A stretch of 64,000 bases of DNA from Cyanidioschyzon merolae (taxonomy: Eukaryota). The position numbers were made by a program, and so were the translations under genes. Where the stretch lies: NCBI GenBank assembly GCA_000091205.1, contig AP006501.2, one strand, 5' to 3'. Position 1 is the first letter of the stretch; every line of letters begins with the position of its first letter. The notes beneath the pieces are model-generated. The model had not been told where the DNA came from and did not search any database. It saw nothing but the letters and a program-made list of their open reading frames with translations. Of the stretch, positions 4,182 through 22,565 are shown in pieces.

Positions 4182-5105
4182 TCACGTGAGGGATTGCTCG
4201 CAATCATTCGATTCCCGGTCCGGTTCCGGTCTCATGTCTGAGACTTGACACACCAGTTTGGGTTCCAAAATGTCCTTCGCTGATTGGATCAGTGCGAGTT
4301 CCGGTGGGACCCCTGCTTCAACAATCTCTCCCTCATCCAGGGTTCGCCGCAGCACATGGTACACTGTTGAGAACGCGTATTCCACAGCTTGTTGGAGATT
4401 TGGTACCCGAGCGCTCCACGCTAGCAGAAGCGCTGCAGACAGATCGCCGGTGCCGGTGAATGATCCGGGCAACCGTGACGGAAGCTGGAACCACTTGCTT
4501 TGTTTCCGAAGCGCTTCCGAGAGGTACACGCAGGGACGTTGGTGCTCGTCTGCCTCTGCACCGGTGACCACAATGACAGGCACCTGGTAATGCGTATGCA
4601 GCCAATGGCAGGCACGTTCGATGTCGGTCTCATGCGGTACGAGAAGTTGAAGCTCGTACGCGTTCGGAATAATTAAGTGCGCCCTTGGAATTAGAATATC
4701 TCGATAGGCCTCGACCATTTCGGGAGGCACGTAGAGCCGTCCGTTGTCGCCTAGAACCGGATCGCAGAGGTACCAAACCGGCTCCTGACCGGCTCTCTCC
4801 GAGTTAAGAAGGTCAATAAGCTCGCGAACGACCTCCAGGAGCTCGCGAGACCTAATATACCCTGTTAACAGGTGCGTTACGCTTTTTAAAAGCCCATTCG
4901 GTAGGAGGCCGTTCCAAACGATTCGTCGCAGCTGCTCGGCGGTGAGACTCTCCCCGGCTTTGTGGCGATATCCCGTGTGGTTCGCAAAGTGCACCGTGTT
5001 GACAGGATCCACGTCCCAGCCGAGCAATTGTAGAGGAAACGTAGCTGCTTTCTGACCCACATAGCCGTGCACCACGTGCGACTGCACGCTGAGTACCCGG
5101 GGCAT
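4182..5105 (-). CDS. Pyridoxal kinase (ribokinase superfamily). ORF extends in frame to 5318; likely start is Met at 5105.
   Basis: Conserved PdxK N-terminus: RVLSVQSHVVHGYVGQKAATFPLQLLGWDVDPVNTVHFANHTGY. ~308 aa from the internal Met matches family length. Confidence 0.85.
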   Translation of the reverse strand: MPRVLSVQSHVVHGYVGQKAATFPLQLLGWDVDPVNTVHFANHTGYRHKAGESLTAEQLRRIVWNGLLPNGLLKSVTHLLTGYIRSRELLEVVRELIDLLNSERAGQEPVWYLCDPVLGDNGRLYVPPEMVEAYRDILIPRAHLIIPNAYELQLLVPHETDIERACHWLHTHYQVPVIVVTGAEADEHQRPCVYLSEALRKQSKWFQLPSRLPGSFTGTGDLSAALLLAWSARVPNLQQAVEYAFSTVYHVLRRTLDEGEIVEAGVPPELALIQSAKDILEPKLVCQVSDMRPEPDRESNDCEQSLT

Positions 5106-5450
5106 GAAGAGCGTACACCAGGAAGCGCGAGAAGTTGCCACGCGAGCGCCTTGGTGGCCGTGCGCGAACGCAGAAGCAAAGCAGCGTATAGATAGGAGGC
5201 GTGGTGAGTGCTCGCGGCAGGCTATATACCCGGAATAACGTACGAGCAAACTGCCAGATCCGGAGGAAAGTATGGTTGGTGGTGTTGCTTGTTGGAACTT
5301 GGTGGTATGGCGCAGCATGACGGTCGCGGATCACGGTCGCGCAACTGCGTATTCCAGGTTTATGTATCAGCAATCCTACGCTCTAAGAAAACGTTCAGTC
5401 GATGGACTCGAAACAGACGGCTAACTACGACGCCGAATATACTCGCCGGG

Positions 5451-5885
5451 TCGTCGATGGTATTCACTGCATTATCCCCATCGACGGAACGTTGATACAG
5501 CGCTGTACTAGTCTTCTGCACGATGCATATCGGTCGTCGATCATATTCACTGCATTATCCCCATCGACGGAACGTTGATACAGCGCTGGACTAGTCTTCT
5601 GCACGATGCATATCGGTCGTCGATCATATTCACTGCATTATCCCCATCGACGGAACGTTGATACAGCGCTGGACTAGTCTTCTGCACGATGCATATCAGT
5701 CTTCGATGGTATTCACTGCATTATCCCCATCGACGGAACGTTGATACAGCGCTGGACTAGTCTTCTGCACGATGCATATCGGTCGTCGATCATATTCACT
5801 GCATTATCCCCATCGACGGAACGTTGATACAGCGCTGGACTAGTCTTCTGCACGATGCATATCAGTCTTCGATCATATTCACTGC
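5451..5885. repeat. Tandem minisatellite, 83-bp unit, ~5.2 copies, >90% identity between copies.
   Basis: Unit tcgtcgatcatattcactgcattatccccatcgacggaacgttgatacagcgctggactagtcttctgcacgatgcatatcgg. It starts at 5451, 5534, 5617, 5700, 5783 and 5866. It lies between the divergent pyridoxal kinase and aminopeptidase genes. Confidence 0.9.
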
Positions 5886-6071
5886 GATAACACGTTTGCA
5901 GGTCACGGTATCGAGATCCACACTGGTACCGAGCAGATATCTTCTTTTTTTCAGCAAGATTCGTTGGGGTCAGCGCTGCAGCGCCAATGGGTGATTGCTC
6001 GTCTCAAGGTAGTCGGTTTGTGCCTGAATCACGGAACTTGCCGCTTTTTGTTTCACTTTGTTCTCAGTACC

Positions 6072-8837
6072 ATGGTAGAACGTCAACTCTTACCGAAAAC
6101 GGTTCGACCGCTTTTATATGATATCACTCTCGAGCCGGGACTGGAGCCTCGTCTACACGAGTCGGTGGCGACTTCTGACGGCGTTACGAGCGAGACGAGC
6201 GCTCCAGCGGGGCCACCAGCTGGATCGCCACAACACCCAGGTGATACTGAAGACGAAGATGCAGCGTTTACTTTCCAGGGACAGGAGACTGTTGAACTCG
6301 AGGTGCTCGAGGACACGAGCTCCATCGTTCTCAACGCACTTGAGCTAAAAATTCACAGTGCGCGCCTCAACGGCGTGGAAGCACACAGCATCACCAGTGA
6401 CCCTGACGCTCAGACAGCTCGCCTGGAGTTTGGCCAAAAGTTTGCAGCTGGAACACGGGTGCGGTTGGAGCTGACCTTCCAGGGTATTCTGAACTCGAAA
6501 ATGGTCGGATTCTATCGAGCAAAATATCAGGATCCAGAGAGCGGCACTGTCAAGTATATGGCTGTGACGCAGTTTGAACCGACCGATGCGCGGCAAGCTT
6601 TCCCCTGTTGGGACGAGCCCGCGCTCAAGAGCCGGTTCCGGATAACTCTCGTGATTCCATCGGATCGGCAGGCGATCTCGAATATGCCAGTGGAGCAGGA
6701 GACCGTTCGGACCTCGGATGGGCGGAAGGTTGTTCGCTTTGAAGAGACACCTCTCATGTCGACGTATCTCGTAGCGTTTGTCGTGGGAGAGTTCGATTAT
6801 GTCGAAGGGCGCACCGCTGAAGGTGTACAAGTCCGAGTTTACACGCAGAAAGGAGTAGCTCATCAGGGCGCTTTCGCGCTCGATTGTGCCGTCAAAGTGC
6901 TTTCGTATTTCACCGAGTTTTTCGGTACACCGTATCCGCTCCCGAAAGAGGATCTAATCGCTGTTCCGGATTTCGCGGCTGGTGCTATGGAGAACTGGGG
7001 TTGCATCACATTCCGAGAGACCGCGTTACTATTGGACCCGGAGCGGAGCGCTGCAAGCGCTCGTTCCCGCGTTGCCGAGGTCGTCGCACATGAGCTTGCA
7101 CATCAATGGTTTGGGAATCTGGTGACGATGGAATGGTGGACGCATTTGTGGCTGAACGAGGGCTTTGCAACCTGGGCCGCAGAACTTGCCGTCGATCATC
7201 TCTTTCCCAGCTGGCAGCAATGGATGCAGTTTGTTTCAACGACGTTTGCAGCGGCGCTGCGATTGGATGCGCTACGCTCGTCGCACCCGATCGAAGTGGA
7301 GGTCGCTCGTGCTCAGCAAGTCAATGAAATTTTTGATGCAATCTCGTACTGTAAGGGAGCTTCCGTTATCCGCATGTTGGCAAACTATCTGGGTCTCGAA
7401 GTTTTCCGCAATGGCCTCTGTCGTTATCTCAACAAGTTTACGTACGGGAATGCGAGCACGGATGATCTGTGGCAGGCGCTCGAAGAGGAGTCTGGCAAAC
7501 CGATATCCCATATGATGCGTTCGTGGACGCGTCAGACTGGCTATCCTGTGATTTATTTTGATGATGCAAACATGATCGTTCGGCAAGAGCGTTTTCTGGC
7601 GGATGGCGGAAGCGTTTCCCATACATCTCGAGTGAATACGAACGCGGACAGCGACTCGAATACAGCACCGACGCACTGGGTCGTGCCCCTGGGCATGATG
7701 GATAGCAGTCAACCAGCAGTGCCGCGCTACTTCCTGCTCGATGCGAAGCAGGCAGAGCTTCAGTCGATATTGGGAACGGCGTCGAATGCTTCGGAGCAGC
7801 GCTGGATCAAGATGAATCCGCACCAGACTGGTACGTATCGCGTGAATTACACCCCAGAAATGTGGCAACGCCTAGTGGAGCCCATCCAGACCAAGGTGCT
7901 CGGCGCAACCGATCGACTTGGACTCGCCATGGACGCATTCGCCTTGACGAAGGCTGGCATTCTGCCGGCGTCTGTTGCTCTCCAAATGCTCGCAGCGTTT
8001 TCGAAAGAAGACGATTATGCATGCTGGCTCGACGTGGTTGGCTCTCTCGGAGAGCTCGGAGCGGTTTTCGCGTCCGACGAGCCCTCGCTACGGTCGCAGT
8101 TTGACCGCTTTGCCTGTGATCTCATGCGCTACACTGCTGAACGCATCGGATGGAAACCGGAACCCAACGAGGAACACGTTACCGCGTTACTGCGGTCGCT
8201 TCTGCTTGGGGCACTCGTGAAGCACGCCGATTCGAGCACTGTGAACGAAGCTCGCCGGAGCTGGAAGGCCGAACAGGACGGAACGGATCGTGTCCCGGCA
8301 GATCTTCGACTCGCAGTCATGTCTGCGGTCGTCCAGTACGGTACAGATGCGGATTTTGATGCAGTACTGCAAGCGTACGCCCAAGCGGTTATGGATGAGG
8401 AGCGGGTGCGCTGTATTCGTGCCCTCGGTTGTACGCGCGACCCGGCCAAAATCCGTTGGTTGCTCGACTGGGGTCTTGATCGTTCTCAGGTCAAGTCTCA
8501 GGATGCGATTTACGTCTATTCGACGCTGGCTGCGAACACGGACTCTGGACGTCGAGCCACCTGGCAATACCTGCGTGAGCATTGGTCGACCTTTTATCAG
8601 CGGTTTGGGAAAGGCAACTTTCTCTTGTCGAGCTTCGTTTCCTCGATACTCAGAGACTTTTCTTCTGAAGAAGCAGCTGAGGAAGCTGAAGCGTTTTTTG
8701 CCTCCATCCCAGACAAGGAGCGGGAGAGTATCCAGCGCACCATCCAGCAGAGCACTGAGCGCATTCGCGCGAATGCGGCGTGGCGCCAGCGGGACATGCA
8801 CGCCGTTCGGGCGTGGCTTGCAGAACGCTGCGGCTGA
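6072..8837 (+). CDS. M1-family zinc aminopeptidase (aminopeptidase N / puromycin-sensitive aminopeptidase-like). An alternative in-frame upstream ATG sits at 5964.
   Basis: GAMENWG exopeptidase motif and HEXXH-(18)-E zinc motif (VVAHELAHQWFGNLVTMEWWTHLWLNEGFA). Length ~920 aa. ATG at 6072 has an accATGg context and gives the family-like N-terminus MVERQLLPKTVRPLLYDITLEP. Confidence 0.9.
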   Translation: MVERQLLPKTVRPLLYDITLEPGLEPRLHESVATSDGVTSETSAPAGPPAGSPQHPGDTEDEDAAFTFQGQETVELEVLEDTSSIVLNALELKIHSARLNGVEAHSITSDPDAQTARLEFGQKFAAGTRVRLELTFQGILNSKMVGFYRAKYQDPESGTVKYMAVTQFEPTDARQAFPCWDEPALKSRFRITLVIPSDRQAISNMPVEQETVRTSDGRKVVRFEETPLMSTYLVAFVVGEFDYVEGRTAEGVQVRVYTQKGVAHQGAFALDCAVKVLSYFTEFFGTPYPLPKEDLIAVPDFAAGAMENWGCITFRETALLLDPERSAASARSRVAEVVAHELAHQWFGNLVTMEWWTHLWLNEGFATWAAELAVDHLFPSWQQWMQFVSTTFAAALRLDALRSSHPIEVEVARAQQVNEIFDAISYCKGASVIRMLANYLGLEVFRNGLCRYLNKFTYGNASTDDLWQALEEESGKPISHMMRSWTRQTGYPVIYFDDANMIVRQERFLADGGSVSHTSRVNTNADSDSNTAPTHWVVPLGMMDSSQPAVPRYFLLDAKQAELQSILGTASNASEQRWIKMNPHQTGTYRVNYTPEMWQRLVEPIQTKVLGATDRLGLAMDAFALTKAGILPASVALQMLAAFSKEDDYACWLDVVGSLGELGAVFASDEPSLRSQFDRFACDLMRYTAERIGWKPEPNEEHVTALLRSLLLGALVKHADSSTVNEARRSWKAEQDGTDRVPADLRLAVMSAVVQYGTDADFDAVLQAYAQAVMDEERVRCIRALGCTRDPAKIRWLLDWGLDRSQVKSQDAIYVYSTLAANTDSGRRATWQYLREHWSTFYQRFGKGNFLLSSFVSSILRDFSSEEAAEEAEAFFASIPDKERESIQRTIQQSTERIRANAAWRQRDMHAVRAWLAERCG

Positions 8838-10913
8838 GGCGAGCGTCCGACAACTCCCGGTACTGCTCTGTAGGTGTGTGCTGAGCGGGTGTGCGGAGCA
8901 GAAGCTGCACGGCGGCTGCCTATGGATCGACGACATCGGTAGTTGACGTCATTCGCATGGTGGACAGGTATTGCCCGGTGTTGGTAGCGACCGTGTTTGC
9001 AGCGACGAACAGGAGCATCTGACGTCGTTCCGTTGGCATCACTCGGATCTTTCAACAGTAAAGAAGGCTTGGACTGTACGCACCGACCAGAGTGTTCATC
9101 GACTCTGTGGACATTCCACGATACACTGCGCTGCGTTGCTCGCATTCGCTTTCCTCGCAAAGCGACGTTGGCGTTGCGCCCACAAGCGATCGCTGCAGCG
9201 CACGCTGGACAGTGATCCATGCATCGTGCACTGCCGCAGCACAGCTGACACCACACTCCCTCGCTACGCATCTATTATGGACCGTGAAAACACGCTTGAA
9301 CGGTGCCGGCGACGATATGCATACTGGCGACGGTGAACCTAGTGATGTCGATTCCGATACGACGAAGGAGCAGAGTGTGCAGTGCCTCCCGTCACATATC
9401 TTGAAAAACACATGACTTGTGGGTGTTCATTCCCAAATCATTTCCCCGTCCGATGATTTCGCATCCATACAAGTAACATGCGTATTTAGAAGCCCGCTGA
9501 ACACCGCCCCGAACGGGAAAGCAGCGCGTGCGTCTGCAGTCTGTGCTGCTCAGTTCGTAGGGTGCACCACGCAGCCGCGATCAGACGTGCGTCGATGGAC
9601 GCTCTCCCGTTTGCCAATGAACATCATACAATGAGCGATGCTCGACTCTTGTCTACACGATCTTACGCCTCAAGAAACAAGTCAAGTGCGCGTCACCGTA
9701 CGTGCTGGTCTGGTGAAGCGCGTCCGGGTCCGTTCGACGGCGAGCACCTGCAGCGGACTCGGCACCCTCAGTGTCTCCAGAGCGGAGCGCTGCGCTGCGG
9801 AGCGATGTCTCTGCGTAACTTCGGTGCCAGGTTCAACCGAGTCAGTGCAAAGCAGGAGAATCCAACACAAGGTCTTCGAGAAGCGGCACGGGTGATCCAT
9901 GTGAATCAAAAAAGCACGACACATGCTGTATCGATGTTGGCATGCTTCTGGATACACGGTGGCATGTAAGATGCAGGCGCTGGGAAATGCATGAGAGCAA
10001 CCATAAGGCACGGACGGGTGCGTCTGAACAAGACCGATACCAGCGTTTCGGCGCTCTTGTTTTCGCAGCAGATCCGAATGGTCCAGTACCTTGTCCTTGC
10101 GTTTACGTGCTTGACCAGTCATGTATACCAGAAAACAATGTGACAGGTGGAATATGGAGCACGACGACTGCAGCGAACGCAAAGTCCATCGTTCTTGCGC
10201 CAGGATTCTCGTCGATACCCCAAACGCTGTCTACGTTCGGGTGTACACATCAGCCTCTTCGTCGATGTTGCTTGGCCGAGGGCGTGCTGCGGCACCTCGG
10301 TGCTCCACAACAACGGGCCATGCATCGACGGTTGCGTTCTCAGGCGCACGAAGGATCCTCGGAACATACACGCCAAACGCGCCTAGCTCCGGTGCTTCGC
10401 GTCCACCACCGAGTGCTTTCTCTGGTGTTATCGTTCTAGACCGGCAACCGGGCGTGCTCGTGCAACCTATCGGAGCCCAGATCCAAAGCGACTCCCGAAC
10501 CAGAACGAGGTCATGTACGCGCAAGGAGCCAACGTCCACAAGAACAACAAATTGCCGTCCGCTCTCCGTACCACCTTGGTGTTTGAGTTGGCAACCTGCG
10601 TTTCGCCAGACCTCTCCGTGCTGTACCCGTTACCCAAGAGTTTGCTGCTGCTCGCAAATCTCAAAAGTATTGCTGAGGGAGCTAGTACATATTCCTCAGT
10701 CGCCATCACTTTACATGCTTTGAGTTGATGCTGAATCGCTTCAACAATCCAGTACCTGAACCTGTAGCAGACATCCTTGTGGGGTATGTGCTGCGTTGGA
10801 CGGTACCTGCGCTGCTCACAGCGCCTTGGGCTGTGCACGTCGCCTCCGCTCGCCGAGCGCGCGTTCTACGCACTGGGCTCTAGTCCAGGCTCAGGACGCT
10901 TCTCTCAGACGAT

Positions 10914-12127
10914 ATGGTTGCCACCGACAAAGCCCGAGGCGTTGTACAGGCGGTTTCAGGCCCCGTAGTGGTTGCTCGCGACTGCCCAGCGTCCATGTAC
11001 GAACTGGTTCGCGTCGGACACGAACGCATCGTCGGTGAAGTGATTCGGCTCGAGGGCTCCTCGGTTACGATACAGTGCTATGAAGCCACCGACGCTTTGG
11101 CGGTAGGGGATCCCGTCGAGCGGACTGGTATGCCGCTGACAGTGGAACTCGGTCCTGGTTTAATGTCGAGCATATTTGATGGGATATCGCGGCCTCTGGA
11201 GAAGATTGCCACCCTCTCGGGGAGCGTGTTCATTCCCAGGGGCGTCGATGTGCCCTCTCTGGACCGGGAACGTCAATGGTACTTCGAACCGGACCCAGCG
11301 CTCTCTGTTGGTAGACTCGTCACCGGTGGTGACTGGATCGGAAGCGTCCAGGAGACCCCGCTTATCTTGCACCGGATCATGGTACCTCCGGGTACAATGG
11401 GCACCGTCGAATGGATCGCACCCAGTGGTTGGTATACCATCACAGACACGGTGCTGAAAGTGAGTCACCAGGGTGTCAGCAAGGCGCTGTCTATGATGCA
11501 GCGGTGGCCTGTGCGACAACCGCGACCCATCGCGGAGAAACTCGTCGCGAATACACCGCTGATCACAGGGCAGCGCGTTTTGGATACCCTGTTCCCGTGT
11601 GTTCAGGGCGGTACCTGTGCTGTGCCGGGTGCTTTTGGTGTTGGAAAAACCGTTATTAGTCAGGCACTGTCCAAATACTCGAACTCGGATGGAATCGTCT
11701 ACGTGGGATGCGGTGAGCGCGGTAACGAAATGGCAGAGGTTTTACGTGATTTCCCTGAGCTAACCATGTCGCTCGCGGACGGCGAGCAAGTGTCCATCAT
11801 GAACCGGACCCTGCTGGTAGCCAATACGTCGAACATGCCGGTAGCGGCCCGCGAGGCATCCATCTACACCGGTATAACAATTGCCGAGTACTATCGGGAC
11901 ATGGGACATGATATGTCCATGATGGCGGACAGCACGAGCCGCTGGGCAGAGGCGCTCAGGGAAATCAGTGGACGCCTAGCGGAGATGCCAGCGGATTCGG
12001 GGTTTCCGGCGTACCTGGCGGCACGTCTGGCTTCCTTCTATGAGCGCGCTGGGCGCGTCAAGTGTTTGGGCTCCCCTGAACGCACTGGTTCGGTGACCGT
12101 AGTGGGAGCTGTCTCGCCTCCTGGGGG
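10914..12127 (+). CDS. V-type proton ATPase catalytic subunit A, exon 1. It is joined to exon 2 across a 245-bp GT-AG intron spanning 12128..12372.
   Basis: N-terminus VSGPVVVA...MYELVRVGH...GEVIRLEG. Walker [40 protein letters not shown]. The exon ends ...GAVSPPG, with a g|gtaagt donor at 12128. Confidence 0.9.
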
Positions 12128-12372
12128 GTAAGTTTCTTCAACAAACAGGCATCGGGTATCTCCCGGTGGCGTGTATGCGATATGTCAGCCATCGGGTCGT
12201 CATTATTGGCGTTCGAGACGAGCGCTTGATGCCAGAGCAATCCGCCGTGGATTGTAGCGTGTCCCGGGCGGAGCGTCCGCAGCGGGGATCACCCGCTGCC
12301 CCAAATGCCGTCGGGGCGAAAGCCACCACGAGCAACATTCTTTATCAATGACAGAAACTAACCTGTGAATAG

Positions 12373-13009
12373 TGACTTTTCCGATCCTGTGACCACTGCG
12401 ACACTATCGACAGTTAGTGTGTTTTGGGGCCTCGACAAACGCCTGGCCAGCCGCAAGTTCTTCCCCGCAGTGAACACAAACATTTCGTGGAGCAAAAATA
12501 TTCAAGCGCTGGAACCATGGTACGATGCGCACTATCCGGAATTCCCATCGATTCGCCAGACCGTACGTCAGATTCTCCAAATGGAAGAGGATCTAAGCGA
12601 AATCGTCGCCCTCGTTGGCCGCGATGCCCTCGCCGAGAGCGACAAGGTCGTTCTCGCGGCAGCCACCATGATTCGGGAGGACTGCCTCCAACAGAACAGC
12701 TACACCTCCTACGACGCCTACTGCCCGTTCCTGAAAAGCATGCTCATGCTTCGAAATATCGTGCTGTGGTACGAGCTTGCCCAGAAGGCAGTCGCCGAAG
12801 TGGATCGCGACGCGGGCGCCACGAGCGCATCGAATCGTCTTACGTTTGCGGGGTTGCGCGATGTGCAAATGGACCTCCTTAATCGACTTTCGCGAATGAA
12901 ATTCCTTGAACCCAGCATGGGAGATGATGCGCTGCGTCGCCATTTAGACGCGCTGCGGGATGATATCGTCAAAAGCTTCCGCGAACGCGACTGGGCGCTG
13001 ACGGCATGA
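12373..13009 (+). CDS. V-type proton ATPase catalytic subunit A, exon 2.
   Basis: Acceptor ...gaatag| at 12371-12372. The exon resumes G-DFSDPVTTATLSTVSVFWGLDKRLASRKFFPAVN, exactly matching the conserved SPPGGDFSDPVT junction of V-ATPase A. Combined length is 617 aa. Confidence 0.9.
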
Positions 13010-17969: not shown

Positions 17970-19697
17970 CTATGCACAGAGCCGCTGCTCCAGCTTGTCC
18001 ATGGCTAGTCGACGGCCAATGGGCCATCGAGCGACCACTTCGATCTGGTCAATATCGGGCTCACCGGCTGCATCGCCAAGTCGGAGTAATCGTTCAACCC
18101 CTGCCCAGGCTACCATGACGCCGTTATCCGTGCAGTAACGGAGTGGTGGAAAGATAATCGCCTGCTTCAGATCGCATGCAGGCGCTCCTGGATCGGTGCT
18201 CCAGGCCGCCGTGCGCTCCACCTCTTCATCATGTAAACGCCATCCAATCTCAGATGCTAGCTGTTGGAACCGTGCCCGCAACACGGAATTCGCTGCAACG
18301 CCGCCCGAAACCAGGAGCGACTGTACATCGGGCTCGTGCGTTCGACACCACAAAAGCGCCCGCCGCGTCTTTTCAAACAGGTGCTCCAGTGCTACGCGTT
18401 GGAAACTCGCCGCAATGTCGGCAGCTGCCTGTCGATTCACTTGCAGCAGTGTTGCGGTTTCGTCCCTGGATCCGTAGCGCTCCAGTTCGCGCTCAATCGC
18501 TACACGAACCGCAGTCTTGAGGCCAGCGAAAGAAAAATTACAATCCGGACGCTTACGGAGCGGAATCGGGAAATCAAAAGCGTTTGGGTTCCCCTCACGC
18601 GCCAGCCGTTCTAGTGCGGGTCCACCGCCTCCACCAACGTCCAGACCCAACAAGCGTGCGATTTTGTCGAAAGCCTCTCCGACAGAGTCATCCAGCGTAC
18701 CGCCAAGGACTTCAAAATTCCCGAGGTCACGAGCCAGAAGCAACATGCAGTGACCGCCGCTGACTAGCAGAACCAGAAACGGGAACGAAGGCCGGTAGCC
18801 TCCGAAAAGACGTGGCACCAAGCAGTGCGACTCGAGATGATGTGTTGAGATAAATACAGGGCCAGGCGCGCTCGATGCCTCCTTGAGTCGGCCCAGAAGG
18901 CGTTGGGCAGCGCGGAACCCCACTCGAAGGCAGATCTCGAGACCGGGTCCCATGGTCACCGCGACTGCGTCCAAGCCGTTGGCGCTGCGAGCCCACACCT
19001 CGTTTTGTGAGCATGTAAAAGCCTCGCACAATACGCGCTCAATAAGTTCATCGATCACCTGCTCATGGGCTTGACGTGCCAGCCCCGGCACAACGCCCCC
19101 GTAACGAGCATGGATACTGTCCTGCTTCACGACCGCTTCGGATAGGATACATCCTTTGCTGTTCACAACAGCGACCGCTGTATCATCGCAGGAGGTCTCA
19201 ATGCCTAGTACGAGGTGCGGGCGCGCACCGCCGCCCGTGAGTCGCAGCACAGTCAACCGTTCATCGGTGACTGGGGCGGCGTCTGCGGGGAGTACCAGAG
19301 AGAGCCCGCGCTGGGACGGTAAAGGCATTTTTAAAAGCCGTTCTTTCTGTGTGTCCGTGAACCCTAACGGGGCACTCCCGGTAGTGGTCTGTTGTACACG
19401 CAACGCTTGCTCGCTGCGGTCAAACTCGCCATAGTCGGTGCCCTTCGGCTGCCCGACGCGGGATCTATCGTGCCGAAAAGATTCCGCGCCAGATGCCATT
19501 GAAACTAAGGTTCCGAGACTCCTCGATGGCGCGGGCGTACGCCAGTACGTTCCTGTGCTGTGATGAAAAGGTGCAGTCGGACTCGTAACCAATCGAGGAG
19601 AAACTGCTGTGCGCACAAAGCGCGAGTGCCCCCTACACGGCTGTAATAGGGCAAACGCAAACACACGCGACTCTGCCGGTTTCTCGAGAAAAGGCAT
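17970..19697 (-). CDS. Bacterial-type tRNA N6-adenosine threonylcarbamoyltransferase (TsaD/Qri7/OSGEPL1 family, probable mitochondrial t6A enzyme). N-terminal ~150 aa form an extension; alternative starts at 19499 or ~19326.
   Basis: LVLGIETSCDDTAVAVV signature, which is TsaD/Qri7-type rather than Kae1 GIEGSAN. Kae1/TsaD family body, ~420 aa core. The Arg-rich N-terminal extension is compatible with a presequence. Confidence 0.8.
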   Translation of the reverse strand: MPFLEKPAESRVFAFALLQPCRGHSRFVRTAVSPRLVTSPTAPFHHSTGTYWRTPAPSRSLGTLVSMASGAESFRHDRSRVGQPKGTDYGEFDRSEQALRVQQTTTGSAPLGFTDTQKERLLKMPLPSQRGLSLVLPADAAPVTDERLTVLRLTGGGARPHLVLGIETSCDDTAVAVVNSKGCILSEAVVKQDSIHARYGGVVPGLARQAHEQVIDELIERVLCEAFTCSQNEVWARSANGLDAVAVTMGPGLEICLRVGFRAAQRLLGRLKEASSAPGPVFISTHHLESHCLVPRLFGGYRPSFPFLVLLVSGGHCMLLLARDLGNFEVLGGTLDDSVGEAFDKIARLLGLDVGGGGGPALERLAREGNPNAFDFPIPLRKRPDCNFSFAGLKTAVRVAIERELERYGSRDETATLLQVNRQAAADIAASFQRVALEHLFEKTRRALLWCRTHEPDVQSLLVSGGVAANSVLRARFQQLASEIGWRLHDEEVERTAAWSTDPGAPACDLKQAIIFPPLRYCTDNGVMVAWAGVERLLRLGDAAGEPDIDQIEVVARWPIGRRLAMDKLEQRLCA

Positions 19698-20437
19698 TCA
19701 GCCGCTCACTCAAGGTCGCTTGCAGAGTTCAAGCGTCTTAGTTCCCTGAGACGGTCGCTTTGCACTGAGAACACAGCGGCTAGCGCGTTCCGCGACAAGT
19801 GCCCAAAAGGAAACAGGTAGTAGAACGGCATCTGTGGGTCACGGCAGGCTAGCGACGCACGCATCGGTGCCGCTGCCGCTCTATTTTGTGGGTTCAGTGA
19901 GTCTGCAGTCGATTGGCAGTTAGACGGATGCCGCGACTGAATTAGGAATGATTAGATTATGTGTGCGAGCAAGAATAGCATAACGACGACATCAGGACTA
20001 GTGCTTGTCACCCTGTAGTTGGAGTCCTCGGTTCCAACAAGTCACCACAAGTGCATAGCGCGTGCGCTGTTGTGCTGATTAAACGGCACATCCGGTGGTA
20101 AAGCATTGGTAGAGGCGGATGCTGCCTTGCGAATGTCATCGTTAAGACCAAAGCGGTAAGATGGCAAGGCGTGCCTCGTGCATCATGAGGCTGTGCATCA
20201 GCGCATCCGCTGCTGTTGCTCAGTCACCGACGTGTCCGTATGAATGCTCGATGCATCGTGCGTAGCTTGCTCGAGCGAGCGCTTGAGTTACTATAAATGC
20301 AGGGAAGCGCTCCGTGCCTTGAGATGGGCGGCAGCTCATGTTTGCGTTTGGACGCGCTGCGGTTCTTAGCGACAGCATCAAACAAAATAGCGAGCGGTGG
20401 AGTCTGTTTCCCGCCAGTTCCCATTCCGTCGACACGA

Positions 20438-20640
20438 ATCTGTGCAGGCTCCATTGTCATCCGCGCAACACATAAACTGCACCTCGGGTAGCCAGTCAGG
20501 TATCCGCGTCGGCGGTCGATAGCGCATGTAGCTAACAAGCATCTGTGCAGGCTCCATTGTCATCCGCGCAACACATAAACTGCACCTCGGGTAGCCAGTC
20601 AGGTATCCACGTCGGCGTTCGATCGCGTCCAGAGGTGCTG
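20438..20640. repeat. Tandem duplication, 103-bp period, 2 copies (~95 bp conserved per copy), upstream of the kinase gene.
   Basis: atctgtgcaggctccattgtcatccgcgcaacacataaactgcacctcgggtagccagtcaggtatcc[g/a]cgtcggcg[g/t]tcgat occurs at 20438 and again at 20541. Confidence 0.85.
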
Positions 20641-20909
20641 CCTGTTCCACGCCTATACCCCAGCTGTCATACAGAGACAACGCCCAGCAGCAGCATACCG
20701 CAGATTCGCCAGCAGCTCGAGTGCTGCGCCACGTGGCTGGCGCTGCTGCGCGGAGAACGCGCCTGCGTCTCCAGAACGCTAGATCTTCGGCACCAATCGC
20801 TCCCAACAGGCGGCAGGGTATCGCTGGCACGTGTGGGGTTCCCCCCCAGAGCCAGTTACTTGTCCGTACGCAGTCAGTTGTCGCGATCGACGAAAACAGT
20901 GACGTGTCG

Positions 20910-22565
20910 ATGAGCTTCGCGGCAACGGCAACGATGACGAGTGCGGGTCGAGCAACGCCGGCGACCTTCGACGGGAACCCAGCACCGGACCGAAAGCTCC
21001 TCGTGGAACCAGGGGACGCTGCCGCCCTTTCAAGAGTGGAGGCGGATCCTCGTGTTCGGTACAATCCCCTTGCACCCATAGGGGAGGGCGCTTTTGGTAT
21101 GGTCTATCGCGCTCTGGACACTGAAACGCAAACCGTTGTCGCTGTGAAAGTCATCAACCTGGACGAGTGTCACGACGAGATCGAGGGAATTCAGCAGGAA
21201 GTTACCGTCATGGCTCAGTTGAACACGGCACACGTTGCAAAGTACTATAGATCTTTTCTCGTGGGGCCTGAGCTCTACATCGTGATGGAGTACGTGGATG
21301 GTGGCTCTGTTCGGGAGCTGATGGAGTTTCTCGGCGGGAGGCTCTCTGAAGACATCATCGCAGTGATCGCCCGCGGTCTCGTGGAGGCGCTCGTTCACTT
21401 GCACGCTCAGAACAAACTGCATCGCGACGTGAAAGCCGCCAACGTCCTCTTGACCACGACAGGCGACGTTAAGCTGGCAGACTTTGGGGTAAGCGGGACG
21501 CTCACCTCGACTTTTCGGAAGCGGAACACCATGGTTGGGACGCCCTACTGGATGGCCCCCGAAGTCATACGTGAAAGCGCTTATGATGAGAAAGCAGATA
21601 TCTGGTCGCTGGGCATTGCGTGCTACGAAATGGCTACCGGCTTGCCACCGTATGCCGATTTGCACCCGATGCGCGCGCTCTTCCTGATTCCGAAGAGCGA
21701 GCCGCCGCGACTGCCCGAAAACGATGATGGATCCTCGCCGTGGTCTGCAACTTTTCAAAATTTCCTCTCATGTTGTCTTCAAAAGTCACCGACTGAACGC
21801 GCTACCGCTGCAGCGCTGCTTGAACATCCGTTCTTGCGCTGCGGTCCAGAAGCAAAATCGCAACTCAGCGAACTCGTGCAGCGAAAAGTGCGAAACCAGC
21901 AGATCCTGACGATGCCTTTAGCAGCGGGCAAGACGGGTACCGAGCCTGTCCCATCAAAATCATCGTCTTCGAGTGCATCGGTGTCTTATCATCCACCGAC
22001 GTCACATTCATCATCAGGGGAGCCTCATCCCTCGGCTTCGGTGGGCGGCAGCCTGTCCCGCTGGGACGACTCGCTCGGTCTCGACGAATATCTGGCTGCC
22101 TCGCAGCGCGCTCTGGATCGAACGCAGTGGCGCTACATGAGCATTCCACGTCCCAACACGATCGTTGCGGGTCGTACAGCGTCATTGATGGCGACGAATT
22201 CGCGACAAACAGGTCCGCCGCATGAAATCCAGTCATGGACCTTCGACTCGAACGAGAGTGGCAGCGTCTTGATCACGAACGCTCCGGGATGCACCTGGAC
22301 TGGGGAAAATTCCCAACTGACGCCTTCACCGTCGCATCCGATGTTCTGCTATTTGCTGGAACCCGCGATCCGGCGTCTTGTTGCGAAGTACGCCAATGAG
22401 GGGACCGATGCGAATGGTCCCGAGCTTGCACGCCTCCTCCATAGTATTTTGGCGCAGTTTCAGCGAATGGAGTGCATTCGGCCCGGTGCGAGTTGTGCAT
22501 TCATCAAAGAGCTCATGGCTGCCGTACAGCAAACACGCCTTCCAGAGGGTGATCATGCGCAATGA
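20910..22565 (+). CDS. STE20-family Ser/Thr protein kinase, GCK-III (MST3/MST4/SOK1)-like. ORF is open in frame from 20721.
   Basis: Kinase subdomains GEGAFGMVYRA...VAVKVINLDE..DEIEGIQQEVTVMAQL...HRDVKAANVLL...DFGVSG...GTPYWMAPEV. The EDEIEDIQQE-like motif is diagnostic of the MST/GCK subfamily. A low-complexity Ser-rich C-terminal tail follows. Confidence 0.85.
   Translation: MSFAATATMTSAGRATPATFDGNPAPDRKLLVEPGDAAALSRVEADPRVRYNPLAPIGEGAFGMVYRALDTETQTVVAVKVINLDECHDEIEGIQQEVTVMAQLNTAHVAKYYRSFLVGPELYIVMEYVDGGSVRELMEFLGGRLSEDIIAVIARGLVEALVHLHAQNKLHRDVKAANVLLTTTGDVKLADFGVSGTLTSTFRKRNTMVGTPYWMAPEVIRESAYDEKADIWSLGIACYEMATGLPPYADLHPMRALFLIPKSEPPRLPENDDGSSPWSATFQNFLSCCLQKSPTERATAAALLEHPFLRCGPEAKSQLSELVQRKVRNQQILTMPLAAGKTGTEPVPSKSSSSSASVSYHPPTSHSSSGEPHPSASVGGSLSRWDDSLGLDEYLAASQRALDRTQWRYMSIPRPNTIVAGRTASLMATNSRQTGPPHEIQSWTFDSNESGSVLITNAPGCTWTGENSQLTPSPSHPMFCYLLEPAIRRLVAKYANEGTDANGPELARLLHSILAQFQRMECIRPGASCAFIKELMAAVQQTRLPEGDHAQ

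Follow-up and report, generated by a model that had tools for sequence, protein, structure and literature searches.

Introduction

Tandem repeats that resemble the locus described here are known from several systems. Classical minisatellites (VNTRs) of the MVR type consist of units of 10-100 bp that are arranged head to tail with high identity. Their alleles vary in structure from one individual to another, with a few unit variants interspersed in an order that is specific to each allele. Their terminal units are also steadier than their internal ones. Unstable tandem repeats in yeast promoters were reportedly described by Vinces et al. 2009, with repeat number altering expression. Most of these repeats in yeast are short and AT-rich, with nucleosome exclusion as their presumed mode of action. 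Finally, the 72-bp repeats of SV40 and the 60/81-bp enhancer repeats of the Xenopus rDNA spacer are multimerised upstream segments for which both factor binding and enhancer activity have been demonstrated.

The array that concerns us is located in a 64-kb stretch of DNA from the red alga Cyanidioschyzon merolae, and the whole of this stretch is what we call the window. With the MVR-type minisatellites the array shares its unit length, head-to-tail arrangement, high identity between units, allele-specific order of variants and a constant first unit. It differs from the human hypervariable minisatellites in being neither G-rich nor strand-asymmetric, and from the MVR-type arrays in its host, which has a repeat-poor genome of 16.5 Mb. 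Like the yeast promoter repeats, it is a tandem repeat in intergenic DNA upstream of a gene in a compact genome, and its length and structure vary between strains, but its unit is 83 bp long and has a G+C content of about 50%. The viral and Xenopus enhancer repeats are similar in that a segment of 60-85 bp carrying short palindromic sites is multimerised upstream of a gene, although their activity is demonstrated.

We found nothing in the literature on this array, nor on C. merolae minisatellites other than telomeres. The array is a previously undescribed example of a well-known class, the minisatellite or VNTR. We consider it probable that it is a locus-specific, lineage-specific and polymorphic member of this class, produced by duplication of an upstream segment that was followed by slippage, unequal exchange and conversion.

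Structure of the array

There is only one TRF array at this site (positions 5449-5885), and it has a period of 83, 5.3 copies, 96% matches, 0% indels and a score of 811. No other tandem repeat reported by TRF within the 64-kb window comes close to it in strength, the runner-up being a 103-bp duplication with 1.8 copies. A repeat search recovers strict 83-nt spacing, and a 70-nt core of the unit is matched five times with one mismatch or fewer, versus no such match in 100 shuffles. The first-pass annotation had given the coordinates, period and copy number of the array correctly, and the TRF run that it proposed as a check returned the values above. That it is a minisatellite of regular 83-bp units between divergent genes, as this annotation had described, is likewise borne out by TRF, by the 83-nt spacing and by the flanking ORFs. 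The units abut without spacers and the host is a eukaryote, so the statement that this is not a CRISPR array is trivially true.

The consensus unit is GGTCGTCGATCATATTCACTGCATTATCCCCATCGACGGAACGTTGATACAGCGCTGGACTAGTCTTCTGCACGATGCATATC. When the array is read in register, units 2, 3 and 5 are identical. Unit 1 departs from these by three changes (GG for CA at positions 12-13 and T for G at position 58), and unit 4 departs from them by four (A at position 2, T at position 6 and GG at positions 12-13). The copies had been said to differ at only a few positions, with cggtcgtcgatcat and cagtcttcgatggt given as examples. Both variants are present in the array, and the units of the 10D array are 95-100% identical to each other, not below the 80% that had been associated with a mobile-element remnant. 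The array therefore has the head-to-tail unit of 10-100 bp, the two or more copies and the high identity by which minisatellites are recognized. The 22-nt direct repeat GGTCGTCGATGGTATTCACTGC brackets the minimal form of the array, which has 1.24 copies, and most of the variable positions of the unit (2, 6, 12-13 and 22) fall within this repeat.

Table 1. Features of the array and of its flanks in the window.
Feature	Position	Strand	Basis or remark
Pyridoxal kinase CDS, 307 aa from conserved start	4182-5105	-	Pfam Phos_pyr_kin/PfkB; orthologue alignment from MPRVLS
Inverted 15/16 copy AACGTTCAGTCGATGG of unit segment CCATCGACGGAACGTT	5390-5405		Unique left flank, 72 nt before the copy in the first unit
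83-bp minisatellite, full units	5449-5531, 5532-5614, 5615-5697, 5698-5780, 5781-5863		TRF, repeat search, core search
First 22 nt of the unit, GGTCGTCGATGGTATTCACTGC	5449-5470		Sequence and allele table; repeated as the partial unit 5864-5885
CCATCGACGGAACGTT, copies within units	5478-5493; others at 5561, 5644, 5727, 5810		Repeat search
Terminal partial unit, 22 nt	5864-5885		Units aligned in register
M1 (puromycin-sensitive-type) aminopeptidase CDS, 921 aa	6072-8837	+	Identical to BAM82922/XP_005538958 of C. merolae 10D

Flanking genes

The array is located between two divergent genes, and these are the genes that the first-pass annotation had named, namely pyridoxal kinase on the minus strand (start near 5105) and an M1 aminopeptidase on the plus strand (start at 6072). 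The spacer between the two ATG codons is 966 bp long. Within it, the distance of the array from the aminopeptidase ATG is 187-623 bp and that from the pyridoxal kinase ATG is 344-780 bp, both measured upstream, and the array is thus placed in an upstream regulatory region, as promoter repeats are. The aminopeptidase ORF carries the Pfam domains Peptidase_M1_N, Peptidase_M1 and ERAP1_C. Entries of Cyanidioschyzon merolae 10D match both flanking proteins, as well as a nearby Hsp110, without any difference.

The deposited pyridoxal kinase model, BAM82921, is longer than the coding region given in Table 1, with 378 amino acids and a start at 5318 on the minus strand. The 71-amino acid N-terminal extension of this model has no counterpart in the Cyanidiococcus orthologues. 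Because these orthologues begin exactly at MPRVLS, which corresponds to the ATG at 5105, the N-terminus of BAM82921 has probably been over-called and 5105 appears to be the better start. The array is intergenic with either of the two starts.

Restriction to one locus and one lineage

No second copy of the unit is found elsewhere in the 64-kb window, either by a search with the core or by blastn-short. When the unit is compared by blastn-short with the rest of the window and with the corresponding loci of sister genera, the only matches are chance matches of 11-12 nt and one 16-nt segment in the flank of the array. Metagenome contigs were also scanned for exact matches to a 25-mer taken from the unit core. 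There are five contigs that contain it, all of them from this locus and equivalent to window positions 1-16 kb, and over 5-10 kb their identity to the window is 99.4-99.7%. Thus, the array is confined to a single locus within the 64-kb window and the metagenome contig collection, in keeping with the proposal that it is locus-specific, and neither dispersed nor derived from a transposon.

The gene pair that flanks the array is syntenic in Cyanidiococcus yangmingshanensis (L019, with a spacer of 773 bp), in a Cyanidiococcus-like JGI genome (L020, 799 bp) and in Cyanidium caldarium (L022, 327 bp). TRF detects no tandem repeat in any of these three orthologous spacers, and none of them can be aligned by MAFFT to the spacer of the window. 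Local alignment of either the unit or the whole single-copy spacer to the orthologous spacers gives scores that are no better than those of 200 shuffles. A likeness of the unit to the spacers of L020 and L019, seen by eye in the MAFFT alignments, was lost in the shuffle test. The lack of an array or of an alignable spacer in the sister genera places the origin of the array within the Cyanidioschyzon lineage. Judged from these comparisons, the array is younger than the split between Cyanidioschyzon and Cyanidiococcus.

The orthologous spacer of L020 contains a perfect direct repeat of 79 nt with a period of 129 nt (4592-4799), at a distance of 202-409 bp upstream of the orthologous aminopeptidase ATG. 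L021 (positions 1-30), which is a second assembly, begins inside this repeat. Despite the similar position, the repeat is unrelated in sequence to the array and has only 1.6 copies. The genome that carries it is Cyanidiococcus-like, with 76% amino acid identity, and within 12.8 kb L020 has three local repeats of this kind, one of them a repeat of 83 nt that occurs twice at 9635-9800. Since there are three such repeats in so short a stretch, we rejected recurrent duplication in the orthologous spacer, and the position shared by the repeats of L020 and the window is probably a coincidence.

Allelic variation among strains

More than 20 environmental contigs of the locus were recovered via exact-protein look-ups and a DNA scan, and their units were parsed in register. 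All copy numbers from these short-read metagenome assemblies are lower bounds. The array of the window has 5.24 copies. The contigs L003, L011, L012, L013, L024 and L026 span an array of 2.24 copies, and L025 spans one of 4.24 copies whose unit types and order are absent from 10D. The unit types of L025 that are not seen in 10D include one that has T at position 22, and another, of the form AGTCT...CAT, whose position 58 is T. Other contigs break within the array, with at least 4.27 copies (L016) or at least 3.05 copies (L023) on its right side, or with four core matches on its left side (L027). L023 and L027 come from one sample series. There are also contigs that span only 1.24 copies (L001, L002, L004, L005 and L006). 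These are probably collapsed assemblies, because L009 and L010 share the right-flank haplotype of L001 yet break with at least 1.5-2.1 copies.

The array is therefore polymorphic in length and structure between strains, with 2.24 and 4.24 copies versus the 5.24 copies of the window. The structural differences between alleles are firm, and the exact copy counts are lower bounds only. A comparison of copy number across strains had been suggested in the first-pass annotation, and the contigs reveal that alleles differ among environmental assemblies and that the array is unstable.

The variants that recur among units are G/A at position 2, G/T at 6, GG/CA at 12-13, G/T at 22, G/T at 58 and C/G at 73. 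These variable positions are common to all alleles, with additional singletons at positions 42 and 66, and the combination and order in which they occur are specific to each allele. In the spanning contigs, the first unit always begins with GGTCGTCGATGGT. A constant first unit together with reshuffled variants is the pattern expected of a minisatellite that undergoes unequal exchange and conversion.

Units differ from each other by up to about 5%, and the flanks of the strains by about 0.3-0.6%. Because the same variants recur in a different order in strains that are about 0.3-0.6% apart, an array with multiple variants must predate the splits between those strains, and the allele sequences point to its reshuffling after these splits. 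The suggestion that the array expanded recently or is homogenised is consequently only half right: the array is younger than the split of Cyanidioschyzon from Cyanidiococcus, and the multi-variant array is older than the strain splits. 10D and a Yellowstone strain are 0.71% apart, and meiotic recombination has been demonstrated in Cyanidioschyzon (PMC13353863), which offers an obvious route to unequal exchange.

Two of the recovered sequences call for separate comment. L024 has Ns exactly at the positions that vary between units (2, 6, 12-13 and 22), which suggests that its sequence is the consensus of a mixed population of array alleles. In L008, positions 1-852 upstream of the aminopeptidase ATG hold an unrelated, AT-rich ORF for Ribosomal_L18A, and only TCAGTACCATGG is common to this region and the window. 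L008 looks like a chimeric assembly in which DNA of another organism is joined to the C. merolae gene.

A possible regulatory role

Each full unit contains the 16-nt segment CCATCGACGGAACGTT, a candidate for a repeated binding site that includes two short palindromes, TCGA and AACGTT. The inverted copy of this segment in the left flank is the only off-array blastn-short match near the array, and when the flanks were shuffled 300 times with dinucleotides preserved, no shuffle reached its 15 matches in 16 positions. The 8-mer core of the segment, CCATCGAC, or its complement occurs eight times in the window, versus three expected; seven of the eight occurrences are in this spacer, and the other 63 kb contain only one. 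A scan of the window found GGAACGTTGATA in the array only. The inverted flank copy is compatible with a binding site that existed before the duplication and was multiplied along with the unit, and a small, local inverted duplication would explain it just as well. Of the functions that the first-pass annotation had suggested for the array, a cis-element cassette or the positioning of nucleosomes, this inverted copy is the only hint.

These features raise the question of whether the array is a cis-regulatory cassette that is tuned by copy number, meaning that multimerised units would act as an upstream activating element or as an enhancer for the aminopeptidase, for the pyridoxal kinase or for both. 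Each unit would then contribute the candidate site within CCATCGACGGAACGTT (TCGA and AACGTT), possibly together with AGCGCT, ACTAGT and ATGCAT. By analogy with yeast promoter repeats and duplicated viral enhancers, the gain or loss of units could cause heritable differences in expression between strains. We regard such a cassette as possible but unlikely. The location of the array in the shared divergent spacer at the distance from the aminopeptidase ATG given above, the inverted flank copy, the concentration of the 8-mer in this spacer and the structural differences between strains are all consistent with it. The length of 83 bp is also near eight helical turns, which would place repeated sites on one face of the helix, but this is arithmetic only and carries no weight.

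However, the motif is not enriched in the other spacers of the window, and motif counts did not find it in the orthologous spacers of Cyanidiococcus and Cyanidium. Nothing resembling the unit occurs in the orthologous spacers of the sister genera either, so there is no conserved element that has been multiplied, and recent duplication alone explains why the cores of the units are so nearly identical. Thus, neither the unit nor the motif exhibits the conservation or recurrence that would be anticipated for a functional promoter repeat. We are more doubtful still of a natural "expression dial", wherein the 83-bp module would carry a palindrome-rich site for factor binding, present in inverted form in the flank as well, and the copy number of the module would set the transcription of the aminopeptidase and/or the pyridoxal kinase and would vary between wild strains of C. 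merolae.

Mobile elements, RNA genes and assembly

A mobile-element remnant or dispersed satellite is unlikely in the extreme. Under such an explanation, the unit or the inverted 16-mers (5390-5405 and 5478-5493) would represent MITE-like terminal repeats, and the inverted arms, located 72 nt apart, are indeed the one TIR-like feature of the locus. But the bases that flank the arms (…CTAAGAA / GATACAG…) form no target-site duplication, there is no further copy in the window, and the metagenome scan with the 25-mer leads to this locus only. The combination of TIRs, a target-site duplication and dispersed copies that marks a transposon or MITE is therefore absent. In addition, a passage in a survey of 41 plant species names C. 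merolae as the only one in which MITEs were not found (PMC3964958).

It is similarly unlikely, and to us barely credible, that the array is a series of small ncRNA genes with 83-nt units of a snoRNA-like or permuted-tRNA-like kind. The unit length is within the range of snoRNAs and tRNAs, and a passage in the literature presents C. merolae as notable for its unusual permuted tRNA genes (PMC3728597). However, an Rfam scan of positions 5100-6100 produces no match in the array even at E<=10, and its sole match is to SNORD95 (E=7.8) outside of the array at 5952-5982. ARAGORN finds no tRNA or tmRNA in the window, and a permuted gene in tandem would read as a normal one across unit boundaries. Read directly in both orientations, the unit shows no pairing of a C box (RUGAUGA) with a D box (CUGA). 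Likewise, dinucleotide shuffles form more stable folds than the unit, whichever strand and whichever of three registers is taken (z = +0.9 to +1.6), and hence there is neither a covariance or tRNA model match nor an extra-stable fold to indicate a structured RNA.

A coding function was also considered and rejected, since 83 is not divisible by 3 and the ORFs of the array are only 46-58 amino acids long, out of frame and ending in stops. The array encodes neither a protein nor a structured RNA.

An over-expanded repeat in the reference record, as the several metagenome contigs with only 1.24 copies might suggest, is an unlikely explanation that we find the least credible, given that independent assemblies carry these units at the same position, with unit-specific variants, and reach 4.24 copies where a contig spans the array and at least 4.27 where a contig ends, that contigs break inside the repeat, the usual sign of a real multi-copy array, and that the 10D sequence is Sanger/BAC-finished (PMC1955436).

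Other observations in the window

There is a second tandem duplication at 20432-20627, with a period of 103 bp, 1.8-1.9 copies and 95-96% identity, and it too is located in a divergent spacer. It is flanked by a minus-strand ORF (17970-19697) and a plus-strand ORF (20721-22565) that is kinase-like by eye. The former ORF seems to match a cut TsaD-family gene call on L007.

The gene for subunit A of the V-type ATPase (ATP-synt_ab families), at about 10100-13000 on the plus strand, does not form a single ORF but is distributed among two to three ORFs or gene calls. The corresponding Cyanidiococcus model has 619 amino acids over 2115 nt. This suggests that the gene has one or more introns; the C. 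merolae genome is known for having very few. The G+C fraction is 0.60-0.62 at 50-58 kb, where there are very long minus-strand ORFs, and 0.50 at 58-60 kb.

Proposed origin and significance

In the minisatellite reading that we favour, an 83-bp stretch of the upstream region, bracketed by the 22-nt direct repeat, would have been duplicated head to tail after the split between Cyanidioschyzon and Cyanidiococcus. Units may then have been gained, lost and reshuffled by replication slippage, by unequal sister-chromatid or meiotic exchange and by gene conversion. The outcome would be alleles that contain the same few unit variants in differing number and order. We assume that the array as such is most likely near-neutral to selection. 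Because of its position upstream of the aminopeptidase ATG, any effect that it does have would be exerted through the dose or spacing of upstream sites.

The variable 83-bp array could serve as a strain-typing marker for laboratory sublines of 10D, for diploid haplotypes and for environmental populations. It is a ready marker because C. merolae has very few repeats, although its practical value is modest. Short-read assemblies are also known to collapse or break at this locus. C. merolae has efficient homologous recombination, and therefore the array could be a cheap test bed for the tuning of expression by promoter repeats in a red alga. If the array has no effect on expression, then it is simply a neutral minisatellite. 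If instead the expression dial were real, it would represent repeat-driven transcriptional evolvability in a red alga that has one of the most repeat-poor genomes among eukaryotes.
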